In this document: piece after piece, positions 1-16,878 of the stretch
How the letters are laid out: every line of letters starts with the position of its first letter
Numbering within the stretch: position 1 is the stretch's first letter
IMG/VR virus record: IMGVR_UViG_2660238462_000003
Reading direction: 5' to 3' (one strand)
DNA length: 28,867 nucleotides
From: a virus
Lineage: Duplodnaviria; Heunggongvirae; Uroviricota; Caudoviricetes
Program-made: the position numbers and the translations under genes
The notes under the pieces: model-generated
Databases searched by the model: none
The model's input: only the letters and a program-made list of their open reading frames with translations
Told to the model about the DNA's origin: nothing

Positions 1-258
1 ATGGCAATTTATTCTCTTGTTGATGAAAACGATTTGCGCACAATGAAGGACATTGATCGGTTCATTCGTGAAAAAGAGTGCATAGCACTTACCACGCTGG
101 CAAACTCAACACGCTGGAAAATGGAGCAGGCAGGTAAATTCCCGCGACGTATCAAGATCGGTGAACGTGCTGCAGGGTATCGACTTTCAGAGGTTCAGGC
201 ATGGATCCGTGGTGAGTGGCATCCTGGATGGAAACCTGGAAAAACAAAACAGCAATAA
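1..258 (+). CDS. AlpA-family winged-HTH DNA-binding protein (phage regulator / excisionase-like)
   Basis: 85 aa ORF; motif ...KFPRRIKIGERAAGYRLSEVQAWI typical of AlpA/Xis-like HTH; followed by terminator; true start could lie upstream of window or at an internal Met. Confidence 0.7.
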   Translation: MAIYSLVDENDLRTMKDIDRFIREKECIALTTLANSTRWKMEQAGKFPRRIKIGERAAGYRLSEVQAWIRGEWHPGWKPGKTKQQ

Positions 259-270
259 CCAGTAAATAAT

Positions 271-296
271 GCCCCTCATCACGAGGGGTTTTTTGT
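271..296 (+). terminator. Rho-independent terminator after alpA-like gene
   Basis: GC hairpin cccctc-atcac-gagggg (272-288) followed by T-run ttttttg. Confidence 0.55.
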
Positions 297-314
297 CTAT
301 AAGGTAAAAACGCG

Positions 315-893
315 ATGAATAAAAATATTGCCGTGACGGGCAAGGGGTACGCTCGTCCAGTGAAAAAATTCTGCGATATTCGTGATCTCGTCGTTCTGCG
401 CTTTGATAGTGTGAACGTTCGTGTGGTGTATCTGAACGGCGATCCGTGGTTTGTTGCAAAAGATGTTTGTGCTGCGCTGGAACTAACCAATTCGCGTACG
501 GCGTTGCAGATGCTTGATGATGATGAAAAGGGAGTAAATTTAACTTACACCCCAGGAGGAAATCAGAATATGAGAATTATCTCTGAGTCAGGTTTCTACA
601 AACTAATAGCCCGCAGCCGCAAAGCAACGACGCCTGGCACATTTGCTCATCGTTTCAGTAACTGGGTATTCAGAAATGTGATACCAGGTATCAGAAAAAC
701 GGGGACTTATGGTATCCCGTGGGGTGCATTACAGGATTTTTCCCGCCGTAAAGAGCAATATCAAATAAGTGCCAGCGAGAAGGGGAGGGAGCTACAGGCA
801 TGTAAGCGCAAAAAGCGTGAGCTGGAGGAAGAAGAAAAAACGCTGATACGTGAATATCAGCCTGAGTTTTACTTTGGTAACCGCATTCAGTGA
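315..893 (+). CDS. BRO-N domain protein (phage antirepressor-like) with charged coiled-coil C-terminus
   Basis: 192 aa; N-terminal ...FVAKDVCAALELTNSRTALQMLDDDEKG...SESGFYKLIARSRKA... resembles BRO-N/KilA-N family; C-terminal KRKKRELEEEEK. Confidence 0.6.
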   Translation: MNKNIAVTGKGYARPVKKFCDIRDLVVLRFDSVNVRVVYLNGDPWFVAKDVCAALELTNSRTALQMLDDDEKGVNLTYTPGGNQNMRIISESGFYKLIARSRKATTPGTFAHRFSNWVFRNVIPGIRKTGTYGIPWGALQDFSRRKEQYQISASEKGRELQACKRKKRELEEEEKTLIREYQPEFYFGNRIQ

Positions 894-902
894 CAAAACA
901 AA

Positions 903-923
903 GGCGACCGCAAAAGGGTCGCC
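903..923. terminator. Stem-loop (possible bidirectional terminator)
   Basis: ggcgacc-gcaaaag-ggtcgcc perfect 7-bp stem just after BRO-N stop; no clean T-run. Confidence 0.35.
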
Positions 924-1226
924 AGTGGGAACAAGGGAAAACAAAAGCATCACCAACAATGCCACATTTGCGGCTGGTGGGCAATGTGATCAGTCAGATT
1001 TGGTTCGTTCCAAGGTTTGCAACGAGAGCTTTTTCCTGTGCTCTTTAAGGAATTTCTCAAGAGCAAACGAACAAGGTGCGAATCTTTCTGATTCATGTTC
1101 ATGCGCTATATTTTTGCGTCGTCTCTTACGAGTTGGTGATGGTGTTTTGGTTGATTCTGTGTCGCTCATGGTGCTGTCCTGTAAAGCAATGCGCCTGCGT
1201 TCCTCAAACTATGGCGCTGATATTGG

Positions 1227-1532
1227 CTATTCATGCTCTTTGACCTTGCGTCGCTGGAGTTCTTCACGCGCGACGGTGACGAGTTGCCCGATCTCCTCGG
1301 CTGCTTTGATGCCGATTTGTTCGACCTTAGCCAGGGCATCCAGTGACGACACAAGGGGATTTTCTCCGCTGCCTTCTGCTTGGCGGCGGGCTATTTCTCC
1401 GCGCATGGCGGTTACGATAAATCCGGCATTGCTTTCACCGTCCAGCTTAACGGATTCCATCCCTTGCATAACATCTAGTGGGACTCTGACAGTTGTCAGT
1501 TGTGATTTTGCGTTTTTGTTAGCCGTTGCCAT
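1227..1532 (-). CDS. Small ribbon-helix-helix-like / DUF3950-like putative regulator (candidate island repressor)
   Basis: 101 aa; strong SD (AGGAG) 8 nt upstream; N-terminal TTVRVPLDVMQGMESVK...GFIVTAMRGEI looks like beta-strand + helix RHH; divergent from the replication operon. Confidence 0.5.
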   Translation of the reverse strand: MATANKNAKSQLTTVRVPLDVMQGMESVKLDGESNAGFIVTAMRGEIARRQAEGSGENPLVSSLDALAKVEQIGIKAAEEIGQLVTVAREELQRRKVKEHE

Positions 1533-1593
1533 TTCTGAAACTCCTAATCATCGGTGTGTTTCAGTATACACAAAAAAAGAAATACAAAAAGCC

Positions 1594-1630
1594 TTGACGT
1601 GTGTTTCATGCGCTCATAACATGAAACACA
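1594..1630. promoter_or_regulatory. Promoter-like TTGACG with overlapping perfect 10-bp inverted repeat operator
   Basis: TTGACG at 1594-1599; gtgtttcatg (1601-1610) and catgaaacac (1620-1629) are exact reverse complements separated by 9 bp; sits in the divergent region between the 1227..1532(-) gene and the 1913(+) operon. Confidence 0.4.
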
Positions 1631-1912
1631 CCGAAAGGATTGTTGAAATACAAAGAGCAACGCCCCGCAGTGCTGGGAACACATACGGGGCGTCTAACCA
1701 ACAACGTAAACTAGGAGCCGTTATGGTTGCTGTAAATCATATACCACACCTTGTACACACACAAACGGCCTTTGTGTGGCGTTTTCTGGCACTGAGTGCC
1801 GGAGAATCTCAAATCATCCACGTAACCGCCTGGACGGAACGCGAAGCGCGTAGCCGTTGCCCGTCCGGTTGTGTTGCTGTATTCGCTGCAAAAATCCGCC
1901 AGGGAGTGAGTC

Positions 1913-2098
1913 ATGCTTAAAACCTTCCGTGTATTTGCCCGAGCTGTTAACCCAATAGGCCACACAATTGGTATCGCTCAGAATGTGAAGGCTGTTAATG
2001 TTCAGACGGCTATTGCTGCGGTGAGAAGCGAATCATCAGAATATGGCTTATCACAAGTCATTATTTCAGCAGTGTATGAATTAAAAGAGGTGCATTAA
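1913..2098 (+). CDS. Hypothetical small protein (61 aa), first gene of replication operon
   Basis: SD GGGAG upstream; stop overlaps next start (TAATG). Confidence 0.4.
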   Translation: MLKTFRVFARAVNPIGHTIGIAQNVKAVNVQTAIAAVRSESSEYGLSQVIISAVYELKEVH

Positions 2099-2289
2099 TG
2101 CAGGAAATTACATTACACGAAGCCGCTGAACGTGCGCACCAGACAGAAATTATTTGCCGCCTTCTTGAGGTATACCCGAACAAAATTACAGATGCTGATA
2201 TATCCGCACTGGCGAGCCTACTGGCGCGTCTTTCGGGAAGTGTCGCTAGTTTTTTGATTGAGGAAGAAAGTAAGCTGGTGGGGGATTAA
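2098..2289 (+). CDS. Hypothetical small protein (63 aa)
   Basis: Translationally coupled in operon; no recognisable motif. Confidence 0.4.
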   Translation: MQEITLHEAAERAHQTEIICRLLEVYPNKITDADISALASLLARLSGSVASFLIEEESKLVGD

Positions 2290-2511
2290 ATGAATACAGA
2301 ACGGGAAGTCTTTTTTAAATTGTTAGCATGTGCAGAAAGTTCATTAACTTTAAATAATTCAGCAAAAGCAATATTAAATATGTGGCTTGATTGCATAAAT
2401 GACAATGAAGATGCAAATATTGCTTATGGCCTGTTGTCACTTATTGATGAATCAGCAGAAAAACTCAATGACGCAATAAATAGTGCCCTGCTATCAAATA
2501 AGTCGAGTTAA
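2290..2511 (+). CDS. Hypothetical small protein (73 aa), AT-rich codon usage
   Basis: SD GGGGGA upstream; composition markedly more AT-rich than neighbours. Confidence 0.4.
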   Translation: MNTEREVFFKLLACAESSLTLNNSAKAILNMWLDCINDNEDANIAYGLLSLIDESAEKLNDAINSALLSNKSS

Positions 2512-2528
2512 GTCGAGGAATAAATAAT

Positions 2529-2828
2529 ATGGAAATGAAAAATTCTGGCTTTATTGCCAGCGGCCCCGCTCGACCTGAATTTATGAACGGCGATATTTAC
2601 CGCGATAAATACGGCGGCACGGTAACGATTAAAGGCGTGGCAGAACGGCGCATCACTTACCGCCGTGAGGGGTATAGCTATGACTGCGTGATGCCTGTTT
2701 ATCAGTTCCGGCGTGATTTTCCCCTGGTATATGCCGCACCCCGCAGTAAGCCCATCAGCAGGGAAAAAGCGTGGGGAAATATCCAGAAAATGAAAACCAT
2801 GATTAACGGATTCAGAGGTAAAAAATGA
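2529..2828 (+). CDS. Hypothetical protein (99 aa) translationally coupled to primase
   Basis: SD AGGAA upstream; stop overlaps primase start (ATGA). Confidence 0.45.
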   Translation: MEMKNSGFIASGPARPEFMNGDIYRDKYGGTVTIKGVAERRITYRREGYSYDCVMPVYQFRRDFPLVYAAPRSKPISREKAWGNIQKMKTMINGFRGKK

Positions 2829-4579
2829 AACTGGCACCGAACGTAAAACAGCAGTCACGCGGCATAAAACACAAAGGAACAGAAGTCATTATTTTTGCGG
2901 GTAGTGATGCCTGGGCACACGCGAAACAATGGCAGGAACATGATGCGCGTATGGCCGGAGATAATGAGCCTCCTGTGTGGCTTGGGGAGCAGCAGCTATC
3001 CGAACTGGATAATCTGCAAATTGTGCCGGAAGGCCGAAAATCAGCACGCATATACAGGGCCGGATATCTTGCGCCTGTAATGATAAAGGCGATTGGTCAG
3101 AAGCTGGCGGCAGCAGGCGTACAGGATGCAAATTTTTATCCTGAGGGTATGCACGGCCAGGAGGTGCAGAACTGGCGCGAATATCTGGCCCGTGAACGCC
3201 AGAATCTTTCTGATGGTCTGGTCATTGAGCTTCCGGTAAAGCAAAAGGCGCAACTTTCGCAGATGGCGGACAGTGAGCGCGCGCAGTTGCTTGCCGATCG
3301 CTTTGATGGCGTTTGCGTACATCCTGAAAGTGAAATCGTTCACGTATGGCGCGGCGGGGTATGGTGTCCGGTCAGCACAATGGAACTTAGCCGCGAAATG
3401 GTGGCGATCTATTCAGAGCACAGGGCCACTTTCAGCAAGCGCGTAATCAATAACGCCGTGGAAGCGTTAAAAGTTATTGCCGAACCAATGGGCGAGCCGT
3501 CTGGCGATTTGCTGCCGTTCGCCAATGGTGCGCTTGACCTGAAAACGGGGGAATTTTCCCCGCACACGCCGGAGAACTGGATCACCACGCACAACGGCAT
3601 TGAGTACACGCCACCAGCACCAGGGGAGAACATCCGCGATAACGCGCCAAACTTTCATAAATGGCTTGAGCACGCAGCCGGAAAAGACCCGCGCAAGATG
3701 ATGCGTATATGTGCCGCGCTGTACATGATTATGGCGAACCGGTACGACTGGCAGATGTTTATTGAGGCCACCGGAGACGGCGGGAGCGGTAAAAGTACAT
3801 TCACACACATAGCCAGCCTTCTGGCAGGGAAACAGAACACGGTAAGCGCTGAAATGACATCGCTTGATGATGCTGGTGGACGTGCGCAGGTTGTCGGGAG
3901 TCGTCTTATCGTCCTGGCTGACCAGCCGAAATATACAGGCGAAGGAACGGGCATCAAGAAAATCACAGGCGGCGACCCCGTGGAAATTAACCCGAAATAT
4001 GAAAAGCGTTTCACGGCGGTAATCAGGGCGGTGGTGCTGGCGACCAACAACAACCCGATGATATTCACCGAACGGGCCGGAGGTGTGGCACGTCGTCGCG
4101 TGATTTTCCGTTTCGACAATATCGTCAGTGAGGCCGAAAAAGACAGGGAGCTACCGGAAAAGATTGCGGCTGAAATCCCCGTTATTATCCGCCGATTGCT
4201 GGCGAACTTTACCGACCCTGAGAAGGCACGGGCTTTACTACTGGAACAGCGTGACGGTGATGAAGCACTGGCAATAAAGCAACAGACGGATCCGGTTATT
4301 GAGTTTTGCCAGTTCCTGAATTTTCTGGAGGAAGCGCGCGGCCTGATGATGGGTGGCGGTGGTGATTCAGTGAAGTACACGACCAGGAACAGCCTTTACC
4401 GCGTCTATCTGGCGTTTATGGCATACGCGGGCAGGAGCAAACCGCTAAACGTGGCTGAGTTCAGCAAGGCCATGAAGCCAGCGGCGAAAGTTTACGGGCA
4501 TGAATATATTACGCGAAAAGTTAAGGGAGTAACGCAGACCAACGCAATTACAACAGACGATTGCGACGCGTTTTTATAA
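2825..4579 (+). CDS. P4-family / D5-type primase-helicase (satellite replication protein)
   Basis: 584 aa; Walker A GDGGSGKST and surrounding D5_N/primase-C-like architecture; followed directly by iteron array. Confidence 0.85.
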   Translation: MKLAPNVKQQSRGIKHKGTEVIIFAGSDAWAHAKQWQEHDARMAGDNEPPVWLGEQQLSELDNLQIVPEGRKSARIYRAGYLAPVMIKAIGQKLAAAGVQDANFYPEGMHGQEVQNWREYLARERQNLSDGLVIELPVKQKAQLSQMADSERAQLLADRFDGVCVHPESEIVHVWRGGVWCPVSTMELSREMVAIYSEHRATFSKRVINNAVEALKVIAEPMGEPSGDLLPFANGALDLKTGEFSPHTPENWITTHNGIEYTPPAPGENIRDNAPNFHKWLEHAAGKDPRKMMRICAALYMIMANRYDWQMFIEATGDGGSGKSTFTHIASLLAGKQNTVSAEMTSLDDAGGRAQVVGSRLIVLADQPKYTGEGTGIKKITGGDPVEINPKYEKRFTAVIRAVVLATNNNPMIFTERAGGVARRRVIFRFDNIVSEAEKDRELPEKIAAEIPVIIRRLLANFTDPEKARALLLEQRDGDEALAIKQQTDPVIEFCQFLNFLEEARGLMMGGGGDSVKYTTRNSLYRVYLAFMAYAGRSKPLNVAEFSKAMKPAAKVYGHEYITRKVKGVTQTNAITTDDCDAFL

Positions 4580-4589
4580 TTTTTTGTAA

Positions 4590-4815
4590 AAGCCATCTAC
4601 CCCATCTACCTGAACAAAATAAACGCATATTATTCAACATGATAAGTGGGTATAGGGCTAGGTAGAAGGCTAATAAAAGCTCTCTACCTCTTCTACCTGA
4701 TTTTATCAGTTTCAGGTAGCAGGGTAGACGGCAGGTAGAGGAGTCAAAAAGCTATCTACCCGCTGAAAGCCGCGCCATTACTGACATGATGAGCATTCGG
4801 GTAGATGGGTAGAGG
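4590..4815. repeat. Iteron array, putative satellite replication origin
   Basis: At least 11 copies of (A/T)CTACC / GGTAG(A/T) core in both orientations (e.g. catctaccccatctacctga, ctctacctcttctacctga, tcaggtagcagggtagacggcaggtagagg, gggtagatgggtagagg); AT-rich flank; immediately 3' of primase. Confidence 0.6.
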
Positions 4816-4864
4816 GGGGGAGGCACAACTAAAAACTTTTTAAACGAGGGGGGGGTGAAAATAA

Positions 4865-5179
4865 ATGCGCATACATAAAAATCACTTAATAAACATGCCA
4901 GCCGAAAACATGAATCAGGGGCGACAAATGACCAAAATTCGCAGAGACAGAACACAGGCAAAATATAAAGCGTTAGACATGACAGAGCTTTCCTTAAAGG
5001 TGGCAATCAAAGCGATAGACCACCACACACGGGCAGGATACGCGAAGGAACATCCCGACCTGATAAGCGCATTCATGACCACAGCAGCGGCAAACTTTGC
5101 CACGCTGACAGAACGGGAGATTGCCGAAGCGGAACAGGTGACAACCATCAATGTTAAAACCGGAGAGCAGACAGCATGA
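4865..5179 (+). CDS. Hypothetical protein (104 aa; alternative start at 4919)
   Basis: ORF with stop overlapping SSB start; purine-rich SD-like sequence upstream of both candidate starts; G8 tract immediately upstream. Confidence 0.4.
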   Translation: MRIHKNHLINMPAENMNQGRQMTKIRRDRTQAKYKALDMTELSLKVAIKAIDHHTRAGYAKEHPDLISAFMTTAAANFATLTEREIAEAEQVTTINVKTGEQTA

Positions 5180-5625
5180 CAGCACAGATAGCGGCTTACG
5201 GGCGGCTGGTGGCTGACCCGCAGTTAAAGACCACCAGCAAAGGGACACAAATGGCGATGGCGAGTATGGCGGTTCCCCTGCCGTGCAGCCAGGCAGATGA
5301 CGGAACGGCGACGATGTGGTTATCCGTCCTGGCGTTTGGCAGACAGGCCGACGCACTGGCAAAACACCACAAAGGCGAACTGGTGAGCGTGGCGGGTAAC
5401 ATGCAGGTAAGCCAGTGGACAGGCCAGAACGGCGAAACGCGGCGGGGCTGGCAGGTTATCGCAGACAGCGTAATCAGTGCGCGAACGGCGCGACCGGGCG
5501 GCAAAAAAGGCCAACAGGGGCAGGCTACTGACGAACTGAACAGAGCAAAACAACAGGCAGATCAGCAAGGAAGCCAGCCACCAGTGGGAGATAATGAGCA
5601 ATGGGGAGATGATATCCCGTTTTAA
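5176..5625 (+). CDS. Single-stranded DNA-binding protein (SSB-like, divergent)
   Basis: 149 aa; OB-fold-like N-terminus alignable to E. coli SSB, Q/G-rich linker, C-terminal acidic tail ending DDIPF. Confidence 0.75.
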   Translation: MTAQIAAYGRLVADPQLKTTSKGTQMAMASMAVPLPCSQADDGTATMWLSVLAFGRQADALAKHHKGELVSVAGNMQVSQWTGQNGETRRGWQVIADSVISARTARPGGKKGQQGQATDELNRAKQQADQQGSQPPVGDNEQWGDDIPF

Positions 5626-5642
5626 ATATTGCCAATAAAAAA

Positions 5643-5667
5643 GGCCGGAAAAAATAAATTTTCCGGC
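5643..5667 (+). terminator. Stem-loop between ssb-like and capsid genes (possible attenuator)
   Basis: ggccggaaaa-aataaa-ttttccggc inverted repeat; no T-run. Confidence 0.3.
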
Positions 5668-5841
5668 ATGCTACATAAATCCCGACCAAAGGGAGTGAAG
5701 ATATTAACACTAATTGTCCGCACTGAAGTTGTCACCCCAAAACTTTATACAACATTGCACTCGGTTGCATGTGTTCGCATGACAAATATCGGTGGTAGCA
5801 TATATCCACAATTATTTTTAATGAATGCAAAGAGGATGCGT

Positions 5842-6882
5842 ATGGTTGATTTATATTCGCCTACTCAGCTTGTACAGGTGGTTAATGCTGTAGATGTACA
5901 AAAACAACTAAATGCGTTGTTTACCAGTTTGTTTTTTACTCGCTCGGTAATGTTTGAATCGCGCGATATTATTCTTGATACAATCGACGATCCAAATATC
6001 CCAATTGCAGCGTTTTGTTCTCCTATGGTGGGTAGTAAAGTTTCACGTGACGAAGGGTACGAATCAAAAACAATTCGTCCAGGCTATATGAAGCCGAAAA
6101 GCAGCATTGATCCAAATAAGTTAGCTGTGCGCCCTGCTGGTGTATCACCTGAGCAATACAATGCTTTTGGGGCACGTAATATTAAAGTTAAACAGGCGAT
6201 TGTAAATCAGGCTAAAGCTATTCGTGCACGTATTGAATGGCTTGCTGTTCAGGCAATCACAACGGGGAAAAATATCATTGAGGGCGATGGTATTGAACGT
6301 TATGAGCTGGACTGGAATATAAAACCACAAAATATCATCACTCAGTCTGGCGGTACTGAGTGGTCAGGTAAGGATAAAGAAACTTTTGATCCAAATGATG
6401 ATATTGAGAGCTACGCAGAATTTAGTGAGGGCGTCACTAATATCATCATTATGGGTGGTAATGTATGGAAGAAATACCGTTCATTCAGAGCGATAAAAGA
6501 GGCTTTGGATACCCGTCGTGGTTCTAATTCCGAACTGGAAACGGCCCTTAAAGACCTTGGTGATTCGGTGAGTTTTAAAGGGTATATGGGCGATGTTGCG
6601 ATTGTTGTTTACAGCGGGCGTTATACCGACGAGGACGGAACAGAAAAACATTTCCTTGATCCTGATTTGATGGTGCTTGGCAATACGGCTCTTCAGGGGA
6701 TTGTCGCCTATGGCGGTATTCAGGATCCGGAGCTAATCCGAATGGGGCTGACTAAAGCCGAACTTGCACCGAAAAACTATATTGTGCCTGGTGATCCGGC
6801 TATTGAATATGTGCAGACACATTCAGCACCACAGCCAATACCGGCCCGCATCAATCGTTTTGTTACCGTTCGCATTGGCTAA
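5842..6882 (+). CDS. Major capsid protein, lambda gpE family
   Basis: Shared blocks with lambda gpE as recalled: NITQSGGTEWS, DTRRGSNSELETA, GDVAIVVYSG, MVLGNT, PGY.KPK; start chosen at ATG 5842 (SD GAGG 6 nt upstream; ORF opens at 5629); about 347 aa vs 341 for gpE. Confidence 0.85.
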   Translation: MVDLYSPTQLVQVVNAVDVQKQLNALFTSLFFTRSVMFESRDIILDTIDDPNIPIAAFCSPMVGSKVSRDEGYESKTIRPGYMKPKSSIDPNKLAVRPAGVSPEQYNAFGARNIKVKQAIVNQAKAIRARIEWLAVQAITTGKNIIEGDGIERYELDWNIKPQNIITQSGGTEWSGKDKETFDPNDDIESYAEFSEGVTNIIIMGGNVWKKYRSFRAIKEALDTRRGSNSELETALKDLGDSVSFKGYMGDVAIVVYSGRYTDEDGTEKHFLDPDLMVLGNTALQGIVAYGGIQDPELIRMGLTKAELAPKNYIVPGDPAIEYVQTHSAPQPIPARINRFVTVRIG

Positions 6883-6891
6883 GGGGGAGCA

Positions 6892-7233
6892 ATGGCTACT
6901 CATTACACTGAACTCATGGCTGGCACTGAAGCACTGGTGACTACGCTGGGGATATTTTCAGCTAATAAAGGGGTAATTCCTGCATTTACGCCACTGATGC
7001 AGGAAGATGCAACAGGTGCACTGGTGGTATGGGATGGTTCGAGCGTAGGTAAAGCGGTTTATGTTTCCGCTGTACAAATCGACACAGCGAAAAAAACACA
7101 GGCACAGGTTTATAAGACAGGTGTTTTAAATGTTGATGCTCTGAACTGGCCTGAGTCTGTAAAAGAACTGTCGGCAAAGGTTGCCGCGTTTGTTGGCTCA
7201 GGTATTTCTGTTCAGCCGCTGGCTCGTGTGTAA
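6892..7233 (+). CDS. Head decoration protein, lambda gpD family
   Basis: 113 aa; PAFTPLMQEDATGALVVWDGSSVGKAV and WPE...AFVGSGISV align with lambda gpD; strong SD AAGGGGGAG. Confidence 0.7.
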   Translation: MATHYTELMAGTEALVTTLGIFSANKGVIPAFTPLMQEDATGALVVWDGSSVGKAVYVSAVQIDTAKKTQAQVYKTGVLNVDALNWPESVKELSAKVAAFVGSGISVQPLARV

Positions 7234-7244
7234 AGGGGGATACA

Positions 7245-7628
7245 ATGCAGAATCATTACAATGACCTTAAGCCAATTGCCGAAATGATGTATCCGGATCC
7301 AGCAGTAGAGGAATTAAAGGCTATTGCTGACAAAATGCGTTTAAGTGAACGCCTTGTTGATATGAATCAGGTGATGGAACTTACTACCCTTAGCCGTCGC
7401 ACATTGCTAAACCTTGAGGCTAGTGGAGAGTTCCCGGAGCGTGTGCAGGTTACGGAAGGGCGTAAGGCCTGGTATTTAAGTGAAGTGATCGACTGGATAA
7501 ACAATATTCCTCGATCTTCTGAATATTGCCGCGTACCTGTCCCAAAAAAGCCAGATGCGGCGCTATGCCTCAAGATTGAGCGTGTACGTCGCAATGCACG
7601 GGATGGTCGCTATAAGTTGATTGGTTGA
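7245..7628 (+). CDS. AlpA-like winged-HTH DNA-binding protein (second copy) immediately upstream of cos
   Basis: 127 aa; MNQVMELTTLSRRTLLNLEASGEFPERVQV...AWYLSEVIDWI matches AlpA/Xis-like HTH; strong SD AAGGGGGA. Confidence 0.6.
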   Translation: MQNHYNDLKPIAEMMYPDPAVEELKAIADKMRLSERLVDMNQVMELTTLSRRTLLNLEASGEFPERVQVTEGRKAWYLSEVIDWINNIPRSSEYCRVPVPKKPDAALCLKIERVRRNARDGRYKLIG

Positions 7629-7650
7629 TGAAATTAGGGCCCGTTCTGGC

Positions 7651-7830
7651 TGGCGGGTCCTTTCCGGCGATCCGGTAGGCTACGGGGCGGCGACCTCGCG
7701 GGTTTTCGCTATTTATGAGCCTTTTTCGGGTGCTGGTGGTGGTTTTGTTGTTCGCTCTATCTCTATGAATAAAAAGGAAAAGATAAAGCCAATACACCAA
7801 CCTGAAACATTACTTAAGTGGGGATATTGA
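7651..7830 (+). other. Lambda-type cos site (cosQ - cosN - cosB)
   Basis: 7685-7696 GGGCGGCGACCT equals the lambda cohesive end; following CGCGGGTTTTCGCTATTTATGA matches the lambda left end; preceding GGGTCCTTTCCGGCGATCCGGTAGGCTACG closely matches the lambda right end (cosQ); downstream cosB region diverges. Confidence 0.8.
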
Positions 7831-8300
7831 TGAAATCGCACCTGATGAACAAAAAAAACATGGCGCAAAGCTGCCGTGTAAGTGCGACAGCGTTCGACAA
7901 GTGGGGAGTGACTCCCGTTGAACGTAAAGGCCGCGAGGCGTTTTATGATGTTGCCAGCGTAATAGACAATCGGGTTAGCAATGCAATTAACCAGATTACA
8001 GACGACAAAGGCGAGATTGATGATGATGAACTCCTACGAGTCAGGATCAGATTGCTGACAGCACAGGCAGAGGCGCAGGAGCTTAAAAACGAGCGCGAAC
8101 GCGGCGACGTTATTGATACAGCGTTTTGTATATACGTGCTTTCAAAATTGGCGAGTCAGATTTCTTCAATCATGGACAGCCTGCCGCTTGCCATGACAAG
8201 GAAGTTTCCCGACATGAAGCCGTCTATGCTGGATGGACTGAAAAAGAAGTTATCAGAGCCTGTAACGCATGCGCAAAACTTGACGAAAACATACCGCTGA
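7830..8300 (+). CDS. Terminase small subunit, lambda Nu1 family (in-frame part; C-terminal domain continues in -1 frame to 8371)
   Basis: RLLTAQAEAQELKNERERGDVIDTAFCIYVLSKLASQISSIMDSLPLAMTRKFPDMK aligns with lambda Nu1; SD GGGGA 5 nt before ATG 7830; -1 frame 8246-8371 encodes EVIRACNACAKLDENIPLMLSDYLMETAG matching the Nu1 C-terminus. Confidence 0.8.
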   Translation: MKSHLMNKKNMAQSCRVSATAFDKWGVTPVERKGREAFYDVASVIDNRVSNAINQITDDKGEIDDDELLRVRIRLLTAQAEAQELKNERERGDVIDTAFCIYVLSKLASQISSIMDSLPLAMTRKFPDMKPSMLDGLKKKLSEPVTHAQNLTKTYR

Positions 8301-8382
8301 TGCTGTCCGATTATCTGATGGAAACTGCCGGAAACGTACCGGATAAGTTGCAGCCGAATAAAGATAAGTAACGTAGTACGCT

Positions 8383-8664
8383 ATGACTGAATCCGAAATA
8401 CTGCGATTAATCCGCCGTGCTTGTGGAATCAGCAAGCAGCATGACGAACAGGCCACGCAGCCGGACAGCGTGACCGCAGATAATTATGTGCGTGTAGTGG
8501 CTGAGGTGATGCGCCGTGACGGTATTGAGCTTAACGGCGTGGATATGCGCAACATACGAACAAGAGTCCTTGAGTTGCTGGCATATCGTCGCCGTTCTCA
8601 ACAACGGAGGGAGAGCGCGAAAAATACTTACCAGTGGAAGAAGCCGGAACGATTGCGGCGGTAA
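8383..8664 (+). CDS. Hypothetical basic protein (93 aa)
   Basis: ORF directly after terS; Arg-rich C-terminus; weak SD; no recognisable family. Confidence 0.35.
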   Translation: MTESEILRLIRRACGISKQHDEQATQPDSVTADNYVRVVAEVMRRDGIELNGVDMRNIRTRVLELLAYRRRSQQRRESAKNTYQWKKPERLRR

Positions 8665-8679
8665 CTTGCTGATATTCCC

Positions 8680-9060
8680 GATAACGCAAAATTGCGCTGG
8701 CTGACTTGTTGCATTGCAAAAAGTTAAGCAGGAAGGCACGGCCTGTAAGATGGGATGCAGTAAGTAGTTCAAGGCTACCTTGTGCTGGCACGCACAGTTA
8801 AGCCGTCGGTGCTGGATATCCCCCACTGGGGGAAAAGCTGGCTACATCCCTCACATCTGAGGACTGATAACGCGACATTGCGCTGGCTGGCAAAGTGCAA
8901 AATTGCACGATGGCCTAACCCATTGATTATTTCGAAAACCTGCAATGCAGGAAATCGGGGAAGTAAGCCTAAGCTATTGATTGTTTCGAAAACCCCCATT
9001 GGGGGATGTCGGGAAAGTAAGACTAACCCATTGATTCTTCCACAATCCTCAATTTGAGGA
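8680..9060. repeat. Non-coding region of short palindromes and degenerate direct repeats
   Basis: Direct repeat gataacgc(a/g)a(a/c)attgcgctggctg at 8680 and 8866; palindromes cgcaaaattgcg, ttgcattgcaa, cccccactggggg, gtgcaaaattgcac, cctgcaatgcagg, cccccattggggg, cctcaatttgagg; three roughly 55-bp units each starting (c/t)cattgatt(n)tt(t/c)c. Confidence 0.5.
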
Positions 9061-9479
9061 GGCCGGAACGTCTACATAGCTGCATCGCCGTAATGATGAT
9101 TCAGCCCACCAGCCAAATCAGCACAGCAACGACAGAATAGCCCGACACAGAAAAACCACGAATATGGGGTTTTTGTTATGACATGGTCATGATGACCACT
9201 CATACAAAACAGGTAAAGCCCACCAGCCTGATTAAAGGTTAACCGGAAAAAAGCCAGGTATCCAATCTCGATATGGGGATCCCTATATCGACATTAACGC
9301 CCACTAAAACTGTGCATATATGCATAGAAAAAGCATCCACCAGCTTTATGACGGATGCCGCTCATCTTATAAATAATCGTGTATTGCAGTGTGTATTGCG
9401 ACTCCTTTAAACGATAGGTCTGAGCATTCGTAATGTACTGTTTTTAAATTTTATTTTTTCCTGTCTTTTCATAAAGGCG

Positions 9480-9707
9480 ATGTATGCCGCCACCATTGAG
9501 AGTGAGCTGGATACGCAGTCAGCGATGGATTTTATTCTGGGCGCGAACAGTCAGGAGCAGCGGGAAAGGCTGACCGGCTGGATTGGTGAAATTGCCGCGT
9601 ATTACGCCGCAGCGCCGGTCCGGCTGGGAGGCGCAAAAGTACCGCACCTGATGCCGGGGGACTCACTGAACCTGCAGACGGCTCAGGACACGGATAACGG
9701 CTACTCC
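9480..9707 (+). CDS. Hypothetical protein, 3' end lost in scaffold gap
   Basis: ORF MYAATIESELDTQSAMDFILG... running into the N-run; unrecognised. Confidence 0.25.
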
Positions 9708-9717
9708 NNNNNNNNNN
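9708..9717. other. Assembly/scaffold gap (10 N)
   Basis: Run of 10 n characters. Confidence 0.95.
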
Positions 9718-9921
9718 CGCAGCTTTACGCTTGTCTTCTCTTATTTTGAAGTACAGATTCGTCAGGTAAGTCAGAAAGCCCAGAACCAGACTTCCCAGCA
9801 CACCAATAGCAGCCCACTGTGATGGACTGACCTGATCAAGCCACTGTAAAAACCAGTAGCCAGCACTGCCTGCGGAGGTGCCGTAGGCAATGCCCGTTGT
9901 TAACTTGTCCATGGATTTCAT
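9718..9921 (-). CDS. Holin, phage 21 S21 (pinholin)-like; C-terminus truncated by gap
   Basis: [63 protein letters not shown]... matches S21/EssD-type holin; strong SD GGAGGTGAGG. Confidence 0.8.
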
Positions 9922-10294
9922 AGCCTCACCTCCGCAAATAACGGATGGTGTACACGGTTCGGAACGAAGAGGGAAAGGTATAGAAGTTACATTAGCGTAA
10001 GGCCTGAACATCTATTCAAAAAGAAAAACGCCAGCGATTATTCTGGCGTAGCTGAAAGCATCATAAAATTATCAAATACGAAAATTACAAAATCATTAAA
10101 ACGCATCACGTTACATCATGTGTTTTTCTAAAAAAATCTTGATGAATATTTGTGGGGAGGAACACCAAAATATCTTCTGAAAACACTTACAAAATATGAC
10201 GTATTTTCATAACCGCATATCTCAGCAACTTTCCCAACAGAATATAAATTGTAGCTTAATAACCTTTCCGCCATCACCATTCGCTCTTCAAGAA

Positions 10295-10680
10295 TTAATT
10301 TTCGTGGATCTCAACTGAGCGTGAGAAGCAGATTGTTTTACGAGCCAACCGCTTAATACGGGTGCGTAGCGTCAGATTATTACGCTCAATGCGTTGGGTG
10401 AATATTTTGCCGGTCAGATGCTTATTCTTCGGCACCTCCCGGCCATAGCTGCCCCAGTCATCGCTGGTCAGCATGCCGATATTGAAGGGTGTAAGCAGTG
10501 CCAGTAGCTCCCGGCACGTTTGATCGGTTCGGGGACCAAAAGTGTAGGCCAGTACACCGCCTGTTTTGGTGTTGTACGCGTACCAGAGTCAGTGTTGCCG
10601 GGCTTTACTGCCAACGTAGCTCCATTGCTCATCAAGCTCGCAGATAAGCGCCACATCAGCATGGGCAACAGGCGAAGAAG
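10295..10680 (-). pseudogene. insB: IS1 insB-like, internal TGA stop and short C-terminus
   Basis: Minus-strand translation LICELDEQWSYVGSKARQH*LWYAYN...MLTSDDWGSYGREVPK...RIERNNLTLRTRIKRLARKTICFSRSVEIHEN resembles InsB; stop falls where IS1 InsB has Trp. Confidence 0.6.
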
Positions 10681-10953
10681 TTATTCGCTTTGGCGCGAGT
10701 TTTTTAAAGTCCGGATGACGGTGTTAATACCAATTTTCAGTGTCCTGGCGGTATCGCGAACCCCGGCACCATTAAAGGCCATTTCAGTTATCCGCTCTTT
10801 CATACCCGGCTTACGTGCTTGATAAGTATAAGTGAGCTGAAACACACGGTGGCAGTCACGGCAGCGAAATCTGTCACGGCCTTTAGGGTTCTGACCATGG
10901 CGGTAAACCTGAGCTGACTGACAACGGGGACAATGAATATTAACTCTGGCCAT
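10681..10953 (-). CDS. insA: IS1 InsA-like zinc-finger/HTH protein
   Basis: 90 aa; CPRCQS...CRDCHRVFQ zinc finger and HTH GINTVIRTLKN typical of IS1 InsA (divergent from K-12 IS1). Confidence 0.8.
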   Translation of the reverse strand: MARVNIHCPRCQSAQVYRHGQNPKGRDRFRCRDCHRVFQLTYTYQARKPGMKERITEMAFNGAGVRDTARTLKIGINTVIRTLKNSRQSE

Positions 10954-11432
10954 GAGATAACCTCAAAAGCCCGTATTATACATCAGACTCAACTAATTAG
11001 AGGCATCACCATAGAACATATGTATGGCATATTATCCACCTGATATCATTGGGGTTACACCAGGTAAGTATAGGTGGGTAATCAATATTCGCCAGTTCAA
11101 CAATAAGGAAAATCTCATTGCATCACAACTATAAAAGCATGTGTTTAACTCGCAAAAAATCATTAAACTAATCTGTTATATTATAATAGCTGCGTGCAAT
11201 AATAATATTATATGCTCTTAATATTCGCTTGAAATATCTTTATATAAAAACAGATTGAATAAAATATTTTGGGGCTGGTATATTTACCAACATTAAATTG
11301 CATCTCAATATTTTCTTCAGCGTGAACAGGATTTTTATACAAACTGACACTATGGGTATCATAGTGTAGTTTTTACGATTGTAAATATCCTGCATGCAGG
11401 AACTCATCACTTTCAGATGATATCGCATACAG

Positions 11433-12392
11433 TTAATTCACCATCAGTCTTAAAGCCAGTTCTTCCGGATAGGGATCGAAGTAATTCTGTGTAAGCAAGT
11501 AATCATTAGGATACTCACCCAGATAATGCTTCAGCAGAGTCAACGGCGCAAGAAGAGGCAATGTGCCAGAACGATAGTTAAGTATAACCTCGCTCAACTC
11601 TTTACGCTGGCGTGTACTTAAGTAGTTACTAAAATACCCCTGTATATGCATCAGCACATTCGTGTGATTTTTACGTGATGCAGGTTTTATGAGAATCGCC
11701 ATCAGCTTATCACGATACACCTCAAAGAATGATTCAAGGTCCGCCCACTCGTGTATTGCAGCCACAAATGGTCCCATATCTTTATAGCCTGCCTGACTAT
11801 GCGCCAACAACTGAAGCTTATAACGACTATGAAAAGCTAATAACTCTCTTCTTGATAATTTCTCCTTGTAAAGGTGATTGAGCTCATGCAAAGCAAAAAC
11901 TCTTTCAACAAAATTCTCACGAAGCACTGGATCATGTAATCGCCCATCCTCTTCAACCGGTAGCCAAGAAAACTTTTCCATCAAAGTGCTCGTAAATAGT
12001 CCCACTCCATCTTTACGACCTCGATTACCATTTTCATCATAGACACGCACGCGCTCCATGCCACAGCTGGGAGATTTAGCACAAACCACAAACCCCGATA
12101 CATCCTTTAATTTGTCCATATAAGAACGACTAAACTCTGTCATTCTCTCTGTCACATCCTCATTCTGGTCGTGGCTGAAACACATCCGTATATTTCCTTG
12201 CGTCGAGCGCACAAGACGTAGAGCAGGACGCGGAACTGGCAGCCCTATAGCCATTTCCGGACATACTGGTCTGAATGTTACCCATTCCACTAATTTGTCC
12301 ATTAAAAAGTCAGCTCTTTTGTGACCACCATCAAAACGAACAGCAGAACCGGCCAAACAACCGCTGATTCCAATCACAGGTTTTTTTATCAT
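11433..12392 (-). CDS. DUF523/DUF1722 (YbgA-like) family protein
   Basis: 319 aa; strong SD GGGGGAGGA; N-terminal Cys-containing DUF523-like region plus C-terminal DUF1722-like region (from memory of family features). Confidence 0.55.
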   Translation of the reverse strand: MIKKPVIGISGCLAGSAVRFDGGHKRADFLMDKLVEWVTFRPVCPEMAIGLPVPRPALRLVRSTQGNIRMCFSHDQNEDVTERMTEFSRSYMDKLKDVSGFVVCAKSPSCGMERVRVYDENGNRGRKDGVGLFTSTLMEKFSWLPVEEDGRLHDPVLRENFVERVFALHELNHLYKEKLSRRELLAFHSRYKLQLLAHSQAGYKDMGPFVAAIHEWADLESFFEVYRDKLMAILIKPASRKNHTNVLMHIQGYFSNYLSTRQRKELSEVILNYRSGTLPLLAPLTLLKHYLGEYPNDYLLTQNYFDPYPEELALRLMVN

Positions 12393-12584
12393 ATCCTCCC
12401 CCTTGACTAATTCATTAACAGATAAACTGTGTAGTGCACGGAATAAATTGCCTTTCTGGCGTCATCACTGACAATTTTTCTGTTATGGACTATTCCTAAT
12501 ATAGTATAAAAGTTCTTTAAGTGATTGGTCGTAATCATCTATCTTTCATACTTACCCTCAACTATCAAAAGTACAGGATTTATT

Positions 12585-13109
12585 ATGAAGTTATGGCCTG
12601 TGTTGACTGGCATTGCACTCTCTTTCACTCTTATAGCATGTAAGGCCCCGACACCACCTAAAGGTGTGCAGCCGATTACAAATTTTGACGCCAACCGCTA
12701 TCTCGGAAAATGGTATGAAATAGCTCGCCTCGAGAACCGGTTCGAACGTGGTCTGGAACAGGTCAGCGCTACTTATGGAAAACGGAACGACGGAGGGATT
12801 CGTGTACTTAACCGTGGATACGATCCAACGAAAAATAAATGGAGCGAGAGCGAAGGTAAAGCATACTTTACTGGAGATACTAAAACTGCAGCGTTGAAGG
12901 TTTCGTTTTTTGGCCCCTTCTATGGTGGCTATAATGTAATCAAACTGGATGATGAGTATAAGTATGCTCTTGTCAGTGGTCCGAACAGAGAATACCTATG
13001 GATTCTGGCAAGGACCCCAACTATTCCAGATAAAGTAAAAGCAGACTATGTGCGAACCGCTCAAAAGCTGGGATTCAATGTCAATGAATTATTATGGGTT
13101 AAACAATAA
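12585..13109 (+). CDS. blc: Outer membrane lipoprotein Blc (bacterial lipocalin)
   Basis: Lipobox LIAC; NFDANRYLGKWYEIARLENRFERGLE...KVSFFGPFYGGYNVI...YLWILARTPTI closely matches E. coli Blc; SD AGGA 6 nt upstream. Confidence 0.85.
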   Translation: MKLWPVLTGIALSFTLIACKAPTPPKGVQPITNFDANRYLGKWYEIARLENRFERGLEQVSATYGKRNDGGIRVLNRGYDPTKNKWSESEGKAYFTGDTKTAALKVSFFGPFYGGYNVIKLDDEYKYALVSGPNREYLWILARTPTIPDKVKADYVRTAQKLGFNVNELLWVKQ

Positions 13110-13136
13110 AATCCCTACCCGAAATGATACTTATTA

Positions 13137-13165
13137 GAAAAAAAACCAGCCTTTGGGGAGGCTGG
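13137..13165 (-). terminator. Rho-independent terminator downstream of Q (tR'-like)
   Basis: On minus strand ccagcctccccaaaggctgg hairpin followed by T8. Confidence 0.5.
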
Positions 13166-13265
13166 CTAAATCAGGAAACAAGCTGTTATATGATAATAAC
13201 TACGTTGCGATTCCAACATTTAAAATGTTAGACTAATGACAATCAGACAGCAACTTTTCTTTTAA

Positions 13266-13643
13266 TTATTTCGAACAATCAGCATCCATCTCCAATCGGA
13301 GATCCAACACCATCAGCATGCCCTCCACTACGCCCTCAGCTTTCTGGAGCATCCTGCCAACCCAACAATCAGATCGCCCATGCTTACGTGCAAGCGCCAT
13401 AAAAGTCATGCCGCCGACATAATAGTCCACCAATAAATCATGCAAATCGCTGTTGTTTTTTTTCAGGCGAGCCATACATCCACAAATGATCATCGCGTCA
13501 TCGTCACAGCATTGCGGGCGAGATTTGACTTTTGAAGAAATTAACCCCTTAAAACCGGCAGCAATGGACGACCAGGTCACATCTTCATGATTATTAGCCG
13601 CCCACGCTCCCCAACGCTCAAGAACCATCTGAATATCACGCAT
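13266..13643 (-). CDS. quuD: Late-gene antiterminator Q (DLP12 QuuD-like)
   Basis: [31 protein letters not shown]...[16 protein letters not shown] matches QuuD/Q82-family; ORF opens at 13658 but start chosen at 13643. Confidence 0.8.
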
Positions 13644-13728
13644 CAACTTACTCCACAAAAATCAGACCAGAACGCCAATTACAAGCAAAAATCAACAAAA
13701 CAGTATTAGTTGATTGTTATCTCTGACT

Positions 13729-13869
13729 TCATACTCCTGCTCCTGTCAGGGTTTTGGCGTAATTCTTCAGTATTCGGTAATCGGTCAAAACAGAACCGGG
13801 GAAACGATATAAGCGCAGACGCCCCCAGCGGTGGCGAAGACGTTCTGCCATATAAAACTCAAACATCAT
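13729..13869 (-). CDS. ylcG: YlcG-like small protein (46 aa)
   Basis: Minus-strand [49 protein letters not shown] between rusA and Q; not in supplied ORF track (under size cut-off). Confidence 0.45.
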
Positions 13870-14228
13870 TCATTCCCCATTTCGGTGATGGTCAGTTCCA
13901 GCCTCCCACCTTTGGTAACAGGCATCTTCACAACGCGGTAATCAACGACCTGAGCATCATCCAGCCAGAAACCTGCTTTAGTGAGTGCGTCAAAAGCGGC
14001 TTTTTGCAGATTATCCAGGTCACGGCGACGGCGATCCGGCATGTGGCACTCAATGCGGATTTTCACAGGCATAGCCAGGCCGATATCCAGCATTGCGTTT
14101 TTAATGATTCGGGCGACGTTATCGCGGTATGCCTGCCCCTCTGCGCTGACGTGCGTGCGCCCGCGATTATGGCGGTAATAGCGATTATTGCTCGGAGGCC
14201 AGGGTAATGTGATGCTGTAGGTATTCAC
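13866..14228 (-). CDS. rusA: Holliday junction resolvase RusA
   Basis: 120 aa [41 protein letters not shown]... matches E. coli RusA as recalled. Confidence 0.9.
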
Positions 14229-14515
14229 GCCTTAATAACCCCCTCTTTCAGCCAGATAACCTGTGTTCTCGCCATACCTTCCAGCGCGCATTCTTTTGCA
14301 TATGCAGCATCGACAAAATGTGTGCGGCGGTCGATTTCGTCGTGGCAGGCAGAACATGCAATGGTGGCAATCAGGTCTGGCGGTTTGGTACCGGTGCCGC
14401 ACAATCCAGTCAGCCGGATATGTGCCAGTACAGACGTTTCAGGGTTGCCATTACATACGCCAGGGATTCTTACCTGGCATTCCCGACTACGCGCTGCTTT
14501 TCTCAAATCAGCCAT
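14225..14515 (-). CDS. ybcO: YbcO-like (DUF1364) nin-region protein
   Basis: [40 protein letters not shown]...[11 protein letters not shown]; start at 14515 with SD AGGAGGAA. Confidence 0.75.
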
Positions 14516-14678
14516 GATTCCTCCTTGCTGCCAGTCGCAACCATTTTTTATCAACCAGGCTGGCGGTATATCCGAGCAGTGTTGGTATTTCGGAAGGCTT
14601 CAGCTCCGGTTTACGCTTACGACGATCTGGTACTCTGTAGATGTGTCCGTTCATGACACGAATAAGCGGTGTAGCCAT
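14508..14678 (-). CDS. ninE: NinE-family protein (56 aa)
   Basis: Minus-strand [59 protein letters not shown]; start overlaps ybcN stop (TAATG); under ORF-track size cut-off. Confidence 0.5.
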   Translation of the reverse strand: MATPLIRVMNGHIYRVPDRRKRKPELKPSEIPTLLGYTASLVDKKWLRLAARRNHG

Positions 14679-15133
14679 TACGCCTCCTGCTTGTCGCGGA
14701 GCAGCTGGAACTCGCAGCTCTGCGGAATAGTCAGGTGGCAGCCAATATTCACCGCCCAGGCTTCAACCTTACACAGGAAGACATACATCTCTCCGGTATC
14801 AAGATCGGAGGTATGGCGTAACGACTGGATAGTGGTGATATCACCGGTTACGACATCAACCAGGTCTTTGGTTTCATAACCGAGATATGTGTGTTTGAGA
14901 GCATCTTTTACCCAAGCTGGAGTGGCGAACGTTTTACCCTTGCTGATGAGGTATTCACTGATTTCGCTGTACCACATGTGGCTGAGTGCATTCTGGGAAA
15001 GACTGCGTCTCTCGCGCCACGGTTTAAGCACCATGCGAAAGCATTTGCCGTCCTCCAGATAAGGCTGGATCTGCCGACCGATAGCGGTGAAGTTACCGCG
15101 ATGCAATTTGATACCATCTTGTGGGAGGTTCAC
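14678..15133 (-). CDS. ybcN: YbcN-like nin-region protein
   Basis: 151 aa ORF resembling DLP12 YbcN; position upstream of ninE-ybcO-rusA. Confidence 0.75.
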
Positions 15134-15408
15134 GCTTCACCTCCGCAGAGGTCAAACGTTGGATGCAAGATATCGCAGGTGCATTTCTGCATCTGTGACT
15201 GGTTGAAAGGTGTTCTGATTGTCGTTTGCACTTTGAGTCCCCTCAAAGCGCAGAAGTCACCGGAGTTGTTCAGGCTCCGATGACATGATTATGGCGAGTT
15301 GATTATGATGAATCAATAGGTTCTTATGTCAAATGAACACTAGATCCAAAGGAGGGTAACAATTATCATAGCCAATGAGATTAATCTCATTTTTAATAAG
15401 GAAATTTC

Positions 15409-16827: not shown

Positions 16828-16835
16828 TAAATTTC

Positions 16836-16861: not shown

Positions 16862-16878
16862 GTTGCCACTGAATTACT

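Follow-up and report, generated by a model that had tools for sequence, protein, structure and literature searches.

A helper-embedded satellite in the portal gene of a lambdoid prophage carries a Nu1-family small terminase gene beside a lambda-type cos site

Introduction

Is a phage satellite that carries lambda-type capsid genes, a cos site and a small terminase (TerS) gene, without a packaging motor, portal or tail, a new kind of satellite or a known one? The question is raised by the left 9 kb of the IMG/VR record IMGVR_UViG_2660238462_000003, a stretch of 28,867 nucleotides from a virus of the class Caudoviricetes, referred to here in its full length as the window. An initial annotation made from the sequence alone had described positions 1-9460 as a helper-dependent satellite resembling a phage-inducible chromosomal island (PICI), and had suggested that its combination of genes may be a distinct satellite strategy. 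In the present analysis, positions 1-9481 are best read, at a probability of about 0.85, as part of a Gram-negative helper-embedded PICI (HE-PICI) of the group B:Phage_portal_2:241, lying co-oriented in the portal gene (the cognate of lambda B) of a lambdoid prophage and following the life cycle proposed below. The result mainly corrects the record, the apparent new strategy being the standard PICI late module in a catalogued HE-PICI; the only, and mildly, new angle may be the comparative evidence for a satellite-specific cassette of TerS and cosB that alternates with the Rpp proteins.

An island embedded in a prophage portal gene

The open reading frames (ORFs) of 1-9460 were profiled with Pfam, PHROG and NCBIfam, and the same segment was used as a megablast query against 5,426 complete Escherichia coli genomes. 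The whole segment was present in 53 of them, the listed copies being 98.7-99.95% identical. Two of the complete-genome copies (L001 and L002) were inspected with their flanks, together with the CFT073 region that holds the PICI EcCICFT073 (L003), a further region for comparison (L004) and a set of IMG/VR contigs (L005-L084). Positions 1-9481 proved to be the right 9.5 kb of an island of ~10.9 kb whose integrase gene and attL lie outside the window, and whose right end, placed at 9460 by the initial annotation, is the att core a few nucleotides further on (Table 1). The integrase gene, expected beyond position 1, was found there: at L001 11897-13138 it ends 2 nt before the AlpA gene that opens the window, as it also does in L002, and its product, with Arm-DNA-bind_3, Phage_int_M and Phage_integrase domains, is a P4-type tyrosine integrase.

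In both L001 and L002, the island, from int to ~800 bp past orf93, splits a lambda-family portal gene into N- and C-terminal fragments, an embedding that the initial annotation had missed. The genes follow one another on one strand in the order cos, terS, terL, W, portal 5', island, portal 3', S49 protease, D, E, FI, FII and tail. The right flank of the window is identical to L001 at 305 of 307 nt and continues there as a pseudogene fragment of the portal C-terminus. The att cores read AAGGCGATt at attL and AAGGCGATg at attR, within the junctions ...GTGAAGGCGATtTATGT... and ...ATAAAGGCGATgTATGC..., respectively. In-silico excision at AAGGCGAT released islands of 10,925 bp (L001) and 10,898 bp (L002) and left uninterrupted portal ORFs of 533 and 530 aa, respectively, the restored ORF matching Pfam Phage_portal_2 (E=6e-97). 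An empty site is provided by the intact portal gene of the CFT073 icd prophage, which is 99% identical to both L002 flanks, with an overlap of 13 nt. The host portal alleles are only ~66-70% identical in DNA but the islands they carry are 98.8% identical, which shows the island to be mobile and site-specific. It is a discrete mobile element.

Helper-embedded satellites of this kind were defined as HE-PICIs by Tommasini, Mageeney and Williams (bioRxiv 2022; NAR Genom Bioinform 2023, PMC10111431), who described them as Gram-negative PICIs with an integrase clade targeting 14 sites in lambdoid late genes, three of them in the portal gene. The supplement of that paper lists the HE-PICI Eco4623.11.B_Phage_portal_2_241 of E. 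coli APEC O2-211 (CP006834.2/1830842-1841738), with the identity block 'aaggcgat', and this copy matched 1-9460 at 98.8% over 1832289-1841721 by megablast. In HE-PICIs the attP centre is flanked on either side by a doubled motif, tgTGTATTGCantgTGTATTGCa, ~81 bp upstream and ~132 bp downstream (PMC10111431). Doubled TGTATTGC stands in the window at 9380 and 9392, which places it ~78-99 bp upstream of the core according to the reference point chosen, and on the int side in L001 at 11827 and 11839, ~132 bp downstream of the attL core. Features that define an HE-PICI were thus found, namely co-oriented embedding in a late gene, the site-group block AAGGCGAT at both ends, a restored target and the doubled motif, and the zone order (integration, Bro, replication, late) is the published one. 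The integrase itself may be of the HE-PICI clade, an element 98.8% identical to 1-9460 having been assigned by these authors to a site group of that clade. Between the window copy and the group B:Phage_portal_2:241, which share the ~10.9-kb size, portal target, block, doubled motif and four zones, there is essentially no difference beyond a few single-nucleotide polymorphisms (SNPs) and a 1-bp frameshift in terS. The element is therefore an already catalogued HE-PICI, and its capsid, cos and TerS genes make up the late module commonly found in E. coli PICIs. PMC10111431 contains no discussion of the Nu1-type TerS of this group, and describes the prototype HE-PICI, 11capE, as lacking terS.

The general features of Gram-negative PICIs are likewise present, with int-alpA, a Bro zone, pri followed by ori, a late zone with cos, a size of 10.9 kb and no tail or lysis genes. 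Induction, excision, replication and transfer at high frequency by a helper phage have been demonstrated for relatives and would be expected of the island. Much of the initial annotation is borne out by these data: the two AlpA-like regulators and the P4/D5-type primase-helicase followed by an iteron origin were recovered by profile and repeat searches, and gene content, att sites and a catalogued near-identical copy agree with a helper-dependent, PICI-type satellite. Among the island ORFs, no Pfam, PHROG or NCBIfam match was obtained to the large terminase (TerL), portal, protease/scaffold, head-completion, tail or lysis families, whose absence had also been noted, and no Pfam or PHROG match to sid, psu, delta or epsilon. 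A scan of 1-9720 against Rfam at E<=0.1 returned no match, so no C4/isrK-type immunity RNA is claimed for the Bro zone. With P4 and the capsid-forming PICIs (cf-PICIs) the island has in common an integrase, AlpA, primase-type replication and helper dependence. Membership of either class was considered and ruled out, as the initial annotation had also judged for the P4 gene set and for the HK97-type capsid module of cf-PICIs: the island has no portal, TerL, protease/scaffold or head-tail connectors of its own, the adjoining portal fragment being the helper's, and neither the P4 genes nor a C4/isrK-type RNA was matched.

Capsid and decoration genes

The lambda gpE-like and gpD-like genes noted earlier were confirmed by matches to Phage_cap_E and HDPD (Table 1). 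A longer, TTG-started ORF of 417 aa (5629-6882) was considered as the capsid gene and dropped in favour of the ATG at 5842, which is used in the complete-genome annotations. The capsid protein is 55% identical to c1499 of EcCICFT073 and 42% to the E protein of the helper and of lambda, and none of the capsid proteins in 50,697 phage records is more than 42% identical to it; the decoration protein is 54% identical to c1500 of EcCICFT073 and 38-45% to the D protein of the helper. Both genes thus belong to a satellite-specific PICI lineage, as judged from these comparisons. The capsid gene differs between the window and the L002 copy by 21 synonymous and 3 non-synonymous codon changes, which indicates that it is kept by selection and is no remnant.

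EcCICFT073, which serves as the model for Gram-negative PICIs of E. coli (Fillol-Salom et al. 2018, 2019), carries the capsid gene c1499, the decoration gene c1500, a lambda-type cos and rppA. The CFT073 region reads capsid, decoration, a 137-aa ORF, cos, RppA (144 aa) and a 93-aa ORF, which is the late-zone order of the present island: capsid, decoration, small gene, cosQ/cosN, packaging-specificity gene and orf93. The suggestion of a distinct satellite strategy is not upheld, since gpE, gpD and cos together make up the standard late zone of E. coli Gram-negative PICIs; capsid genes were reported in 21 of 29 reference PICIs. The two elements differ in location, EcCICFT073 being chromosomal, next to phoQ in CFT073, whereas the island is prophage-embedded, and in packaging specificity, RppA requiring the helper TerS whereas the island has a 180-aa TerS of the Nu1 family, and their cosB sequences differ. 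With no portal, protease or scaffold gene in the island, the capsid gene alone cannot build heads, and roles for the satellite gpE and gpD, for example in entering or remodelling capsids, are unproven candidates. Why PICIs keep their own gpE and gpD genes under purifying selection is a known question.

The cos site and the Nu1-family small terminase

The exact lambda cosN, GGGCGGCGACCT, occurs once in the window (~0.003 occurrences expected by chance, by arithmetic) and lies within a 77-nt block with 91% identity to the cosQ-cosN region of the prophage around the island in a complete genome, in line with the lambda-type cos of the initial annotation. The region 8665-9470 was also considered as the place of cos and was set aside, as it contains no cosN; the site is the 77-nt block upstream of terS. 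In the alignment, the island has cosQ, cosN and the next ~22 bp in common with lambda, EcCICFT073 and both types of helper. Beyond the shared ATTTATGA the sequences part, and the cosB of the island is unlike the others and has no R3-I1-R2-R1 array. The candidate cosB contains the conserved GGTGGTGGTTTTGTT at 7735-7749. Among 59 related loci with an exact cosN, this site lies exactly 145 nt upstream of terS in 57, and the motif GGTGGTGG(TTTTGTT) is present in 58, at ~bp 51-65 from the cohesive end, the position at which Murialdo and Feiss placed the PICI equivalent of R3. At the aligned position, EcCICFT073 (L003 ~2560-2580) has ACCACCACCAC where the island has GGTGGTGGTTTTGTT, the same trinucleotide run in opposite orientation; this correspondence could be a coincidence or a shared ancestral site. 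EcCICFT073 also has, between rppA and orf93 (L003 3264-3313), a second, inverted segment containing cosN, 90% identical to window 7681-7730.

The gene downstream of cos encodes a Nu1-like TerS, as first proposed, and is full length in intact copies and frameshifted in the window. The intact protein matched phrog_57 over residues 1-176 (E=5e-51), and is 38% identical to lambda Nu1 (residues 6-167) and 48% to N15 gp1. Compared with lambda Nu1 region by region, the protein has 31% identity over the DNA-binding domain, 44% over the middle, oligomerisation part and 39% over the C-terminus, where a Nu1-like segment is kept (LDENIPLMLSDY vs LDELIPGLLSEY). Intact copies thus show the homology expected of the Nu1 family over their full length, including the C-terminal TerL-binding segment, next to cosN. 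The proteins of lambda and N15, which together with the lambda-21 cosB specificity swaps are among the closest known systems, belong to the same phrog_57 family, with the oligomerisation and C-terminal TerL-binding motifs kept, and their terS genes lie ~145 nt downstream of an identical cosN, as in the island; in contrast, TerS identity is only 38-48%, the DNA-binding domain is the most diverged part, cosB is another sequence and the terS lineage of the island does not precede terL at any of 80 related loci.

Rpp proteins are 139-154 aa long and are composed of a winged helix-turn-helix (wHTH) and their own dimerisation domain, with no TerL-binding part. The island TerS does not show the hallmarks of this type, being a full-length Nu1 homologue with no similarity to RppA by BLASTP. 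When TerS was used as a query against PDB sequences, the matches were of chance level only, with no solved chain, including RppC, at E<=1; by this search TerS is not recognisable as an Rpp, and even the DNA-binding domain of Nu1 has diverged too far for phmmer. No TerS more than 48% identical was found in the sequenced phages searched, nor any relative in species-representative genomes, whereas 120 IMG/VR contigs held relatives, of which 80, at 79-100% identity, were kept. An adjoining TerL gene was found at none of these 80 loci, and orf93 is the next gene in 74. In these contigs the TerS lineage is paired with two capsid/decoration types, that of the window and that of EcCICFT073 c1499. Several primase types, 42-100% identical, are found in the same set, and many of the contigs are 8-14 kb long, the size of a satellite. 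The association of one TerS lineage with varied capsids and primases points to modular shuffling of PICI zones. In many PICIs, some of them with an EcCICFT073-type capsid gene, the place of Rpp is thus taken by a full-length, satellite-specific TerS of the Nu1 type, together with a cosB inherited along with it; homologues of terS in some Gram-negative PICIs had been noted already in 2018.

Over the 9.48 kb of the island, the window and L001 show 5 differences, of which four are SNPs and one is a deletion, and all genes except terS are intact. The deletion falls in an A-run of terS (~8236-8240), which reads A5 instead of A6 and puts the last ~42 residues of TerS out of frame. The A5 form occurs in none of the 56 complete genomes with the terS segment, the best matches being 99.2% identical, that is, with one gap. 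It reflects a private mutation that inactivates the gene, or else an error of the draft assembly in a homopolymer.

Proposed life cycle and alternatives

A life cycle can be proposed for the island, its early steps being modelled on those published for 11capE and EcCICFT073. The SOS response would induce the composite prophage; Int and AlpA would then excise the island at AAGGCGAT, restoring the portal gene of the helper, and the island would replicate from its iteron origin with its own primase-helicase and single-strand DNA-binding protein (SSB). The satellite TerS would bind the island-specific cosB, presumably at the conserved GGTGGTGGTTTTGTT ~50-65 bp from the cohesive end, and its central and C-terminal Nu1-like parts would recruit the helper TerL to cut the shared cosN. 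Island concatemers would be packaged in heads that need the portal, protease/scaffold, head-completion and tail proteins of the helper. The packaged unit is probably four copies: by arithmetic these amount to ~43.7 kb, or ~90% of the lambda genome, a length inside the packaging limits of a lambda-size head, and such a tetramer is consistent with the phage-sized packaged DNA of EcCICFT073.

Direct recruitment of the helper TerL by a satellite TerS acting on its own cosB, as we infer it, would be a cos-type analogue of the TerS of Staphylococcus aureus pathogenicity islands (SaPIs), and an alternative to Rpp. The shared concept is that a satellite TerS redirects the helper TerL to satellite DNA; the SaPI protein, of the pac-type staphylococcal PICIs, belongs to an unrelated family and serves headful (pac) rather than cos packaging, and SaPIs add Ppi against the phage TerS, an analogue of which was not identified in the island. 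A wider proposal is tentative, being in our view possible rather than probable: the TerS-type cassette, consisting of a satellite-only Nu1-family TerS with its own cosB GGTGGTGGTTTTGTT, may alternate with the Rpp type at the same locus, bind TerL directly and package independently of, and possibly in competition with, the helper TerS, with gpE and gpD contributing to or remodelling the capsid. TerS-type and Rpp-type cassettes would offer two modes of cos-terminase hijacking that can be tested against each other.

Several points weigh against the HE-PICI reading and the life cycle attached to it. The helpers in which the island is found have TerL proteins of two types, strongly diverged at the N-terminal end, where TerS binds, and it is therefore uncertain that one satellite TerS fits both. 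The capsid and decoration genes of EcCICFT073 are not needed for interference, and its DNA is packaged in phage-sized heads (2018 PICI paper), so that an 'own capsid shell' may do little for the island. Excision of the prototype HE-PICI 11capE has been reported, yet no plaque-forming helper virions were detected, and many HE-PICI helpers look truncated. The window itself is limited, with 226 nt of portal gene as its right flank before the gap and with the integrase and attL beyond its edge. Lastly, loss of the last 30 residues of lambda Nu1 is known to impair TerL binding, and since the frameshift hits the corresponding region, the window copy may be packaging-defective, unless the missing A is a homopolymer sequencing error.

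Of the alternatives that concern the nature of the element, the one in which it is an ordinary rearranged or defective segment of a lambdoid prophage, and no satellite at all, has next to no probability. The initial annotation had named terL, portal, scaffold and tail genes contiguous with the segment as a sign of such a prophage, and terS, terL, W, portal fragments, protease, D, E and tail genes are indeed contiguous with it in complete genomes; the contiguity stands, but the interpretation is refuted by the island's own att sites, the empty site and the two portal alleles. Insertion was precise, with an 8-nt identity block, the unoccupied gene is nearly identical to the flanks, excision restores the ORF, and the same island recurs in portal alleles that are themselves well diverged, while a P4-type int, alpA, a primase with iterons, the four-zone order of PICIs and the lack of tail and lysis genes likewise speak against it. 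It is also very unlikely that the island stands for a separate, new class of satellites that make a lambda-type capsid shell of their own and take only the motor, portal and tails from the helper. Its gpE- and gpD-type genes are intact and under purifying selection and, at 42% identity to any phage capsid protein, satellite-specific, as that account would have it, but both genes, arranged in the same order with cos, are already found in EcCICFT073 (2018), PMC10111431 lists the element among the HE-PICIs, and the island encodes neither scaffold nor protease nor portal, so that a shell could form only with head proteins of the helper.

Other alternatives accept the HE-PICI and differ on how its TerS behaves. 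The Nu1-like protein may act in the manner of Rpp, forming mixed oligomers with the helper TerS, poisoning recognition of the helper cosB and reaching TerL through the helper TerS. Its gene occupies the exact position of rpp downstream of cos, the oligomerisation region is its most Nu1-like part (44%), which makes hetero-oligomers plausible, and Rpp-type interference is a published mechanism in this PICI family; this course is nevertheless unlikely given the lack of similarity to RppA or of a PDB match to RppC or another chain, and given a full-length protein whose Nu1-like C-terminus would in principle be enough for direct TerL binding. Little weight is given, too, to the view that the window copy is an immobilised, decaying island with an inactivated terS in a possibly defective helper. 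A 1-bp deletion that truncates TerS and is absent from 56 complete-genome copies would fit decay, as would the frequent truncation of HE-PICI helpers, but only 5 differences separate the 9.48 kb from an intact copy, the other genes are intact, and, the source being a draft scaffold that contains an N gap, the deletion could just as well be a homopolymer error. The related idea that the capsid and terS genes are inactive remnants, raised in the initial annotation, thus fails for the capsid gene, which is under purifying selection, and could apply to terS in the window copy alone, the A5 form being absent from the 56 complete-genome copies.

Other features of the island

The features of the island and of its right flank are collected in Table 1.

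Table 1. Features of the island and its right flank in window coordinates.
Feature	Position	Strand	Evidence or remarks
alpA, integration zone, excisionase/activator family	1-258	+	Pfam Phage_AlpA E=5e-14
Bro-N domain protein (Bro zone)	315-893	+	Pfam Bro-N E=5e-20
YlcI/YnfO-family gene, divergent	1227-1532	-	NCBIfam NF041551 E=2e-17; no Pfam match above threshold
Icd-like cell-division-inhibitor gene, opens rightward operon	1723-1920	+	NCBIfam NF033153 E=1e-17
Three small ORFs	1913-2098, 2098-2289, 2290-2511	+	Hypothetical in complete copies
DUF4222 protein	2529-2828	+	Pfam DUF4222 E=4e-23
Primase-helicase (P4 alpha / D5 type)	2825-4579	+	Pfam D5_N, DUF5906, Pox_D5
Iteron-type replication origin	4588-4816		Dense ATCTACC/GGTAGAT repeats in both orientations directly after primase gene (repeat search, families D1-D3, I1-I11)
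Hypothetical 83-aa protein	4928-5179	+	phrog_1231, family with no annotated function
SSB	5176-5625	+	Pfam SSB E=6e-16
Major capsid protein, lambda gpE family, PICI lineage	5842-6882	+	Pfam Phage_cap_E E=2e-41
Head decoration protein, lambda gpD family	6892-7233	+	Pfam HDPD E=4e-15
Second AlpA-like wHTH protein	7245-7628	+	Pfam Phage_AlpA E=1e-8; phrog_2790 E=2e-48
cos site	7653-7829	+	cosQ-cosN block 7653-7729; cosN GGGCGGCGACCT 7685-7696; satellite-specific cosB candidate 7719-7829
Nu1-family TerS	7830-8371	+	Pfam Phage_Nu1 E=1e-21; 180 aa in intact copies; frameshifted in window
orf93, conserved PICI late-zone gene (93 aa)	8383-8664	+	76% identical to same-position gene in EcCICFT073
Non-coding right arm	8665-9473		Three 54-nt tandem repeats 8913-9074; CCACCAGC repeats; doubled TGTATTGC 9378-9400
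attR core / identity block AAGGCGAT, right end of island	9474-9481	+	attL/attR/attB comparison
3' part of helper portal gene (lambda gpB family), not island	9482-9707	+	Cut by 10-N scaffold gap 9708-9717

Just after alpA, a terminator-like site on the plus strand (271-289), with a GC-rich hairpin followed by a T-run, precedes the Bro gene. The divergent gene at 1227-1532, which had been taken as repressor-like, matched the YlcI/YnfO family (NF041551) and gave no evidence of a repressor; a gene of this family is also present in the helper prophage, just upstream of the helper cos (L001 7639-7833). A promoter scan gave a sigma-70-like match at 1594-1622, ahead of the Icd-like gene. The first two of the three small ORFs match PHROG families with no annotated function, and 2290-2511 has no family match above threshold. 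The origin is placed as in published PICIs, which likewise have it after pri.

In the right arm, each of the 54-nt repeats contains a short hairpin, the stems of which vary and yet remain complementary (CCTGCA/TGCAGG, CCCCCA/TGGGGG and CCTCAA/TTGAGG). The repeat region contains no ORF and no Rfam match, and its fold z-score is -1.7. One 54-nt unit and a palindromic segment (9213-9302) recur near the right end of EcCICFT073, at L003 3803-4009.

The window beyond the scaffold gap

Positions 9718-28867 match, inverted, the early-gene half of a lambdoid prophage located in the attachment region of lambda, with the order holin, Q, rusA, ninE, P, O, cro-like, S24-type repressor, gam, bet, exo, xis, int and ybhC. 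As this part is inverted relative to the late genes across the 10-N gap, the join reflects scaffolding order and no natural adjacency. The published helper of the catalogued CP006834.2 copy is likewise a prophage at ybhC (PMC10111431), so that 9718-28867 may belong to the opposite end of the helper in the window, brought next to the island by scaffolding. Of an AraC/HTH-type prophage gene that is intact in the comparison region (L004 893-1624), only the C-terminal ~50 codons are left, as ORF 10128-10280. The minus-strand ORFs beside this remnant are presumably IS1-family, one InsA-like (10681-10953) and one InsB-like. Together, the remnant and these ORFs (10128-10953) suggest an insertion of an insertion sequence (IS).

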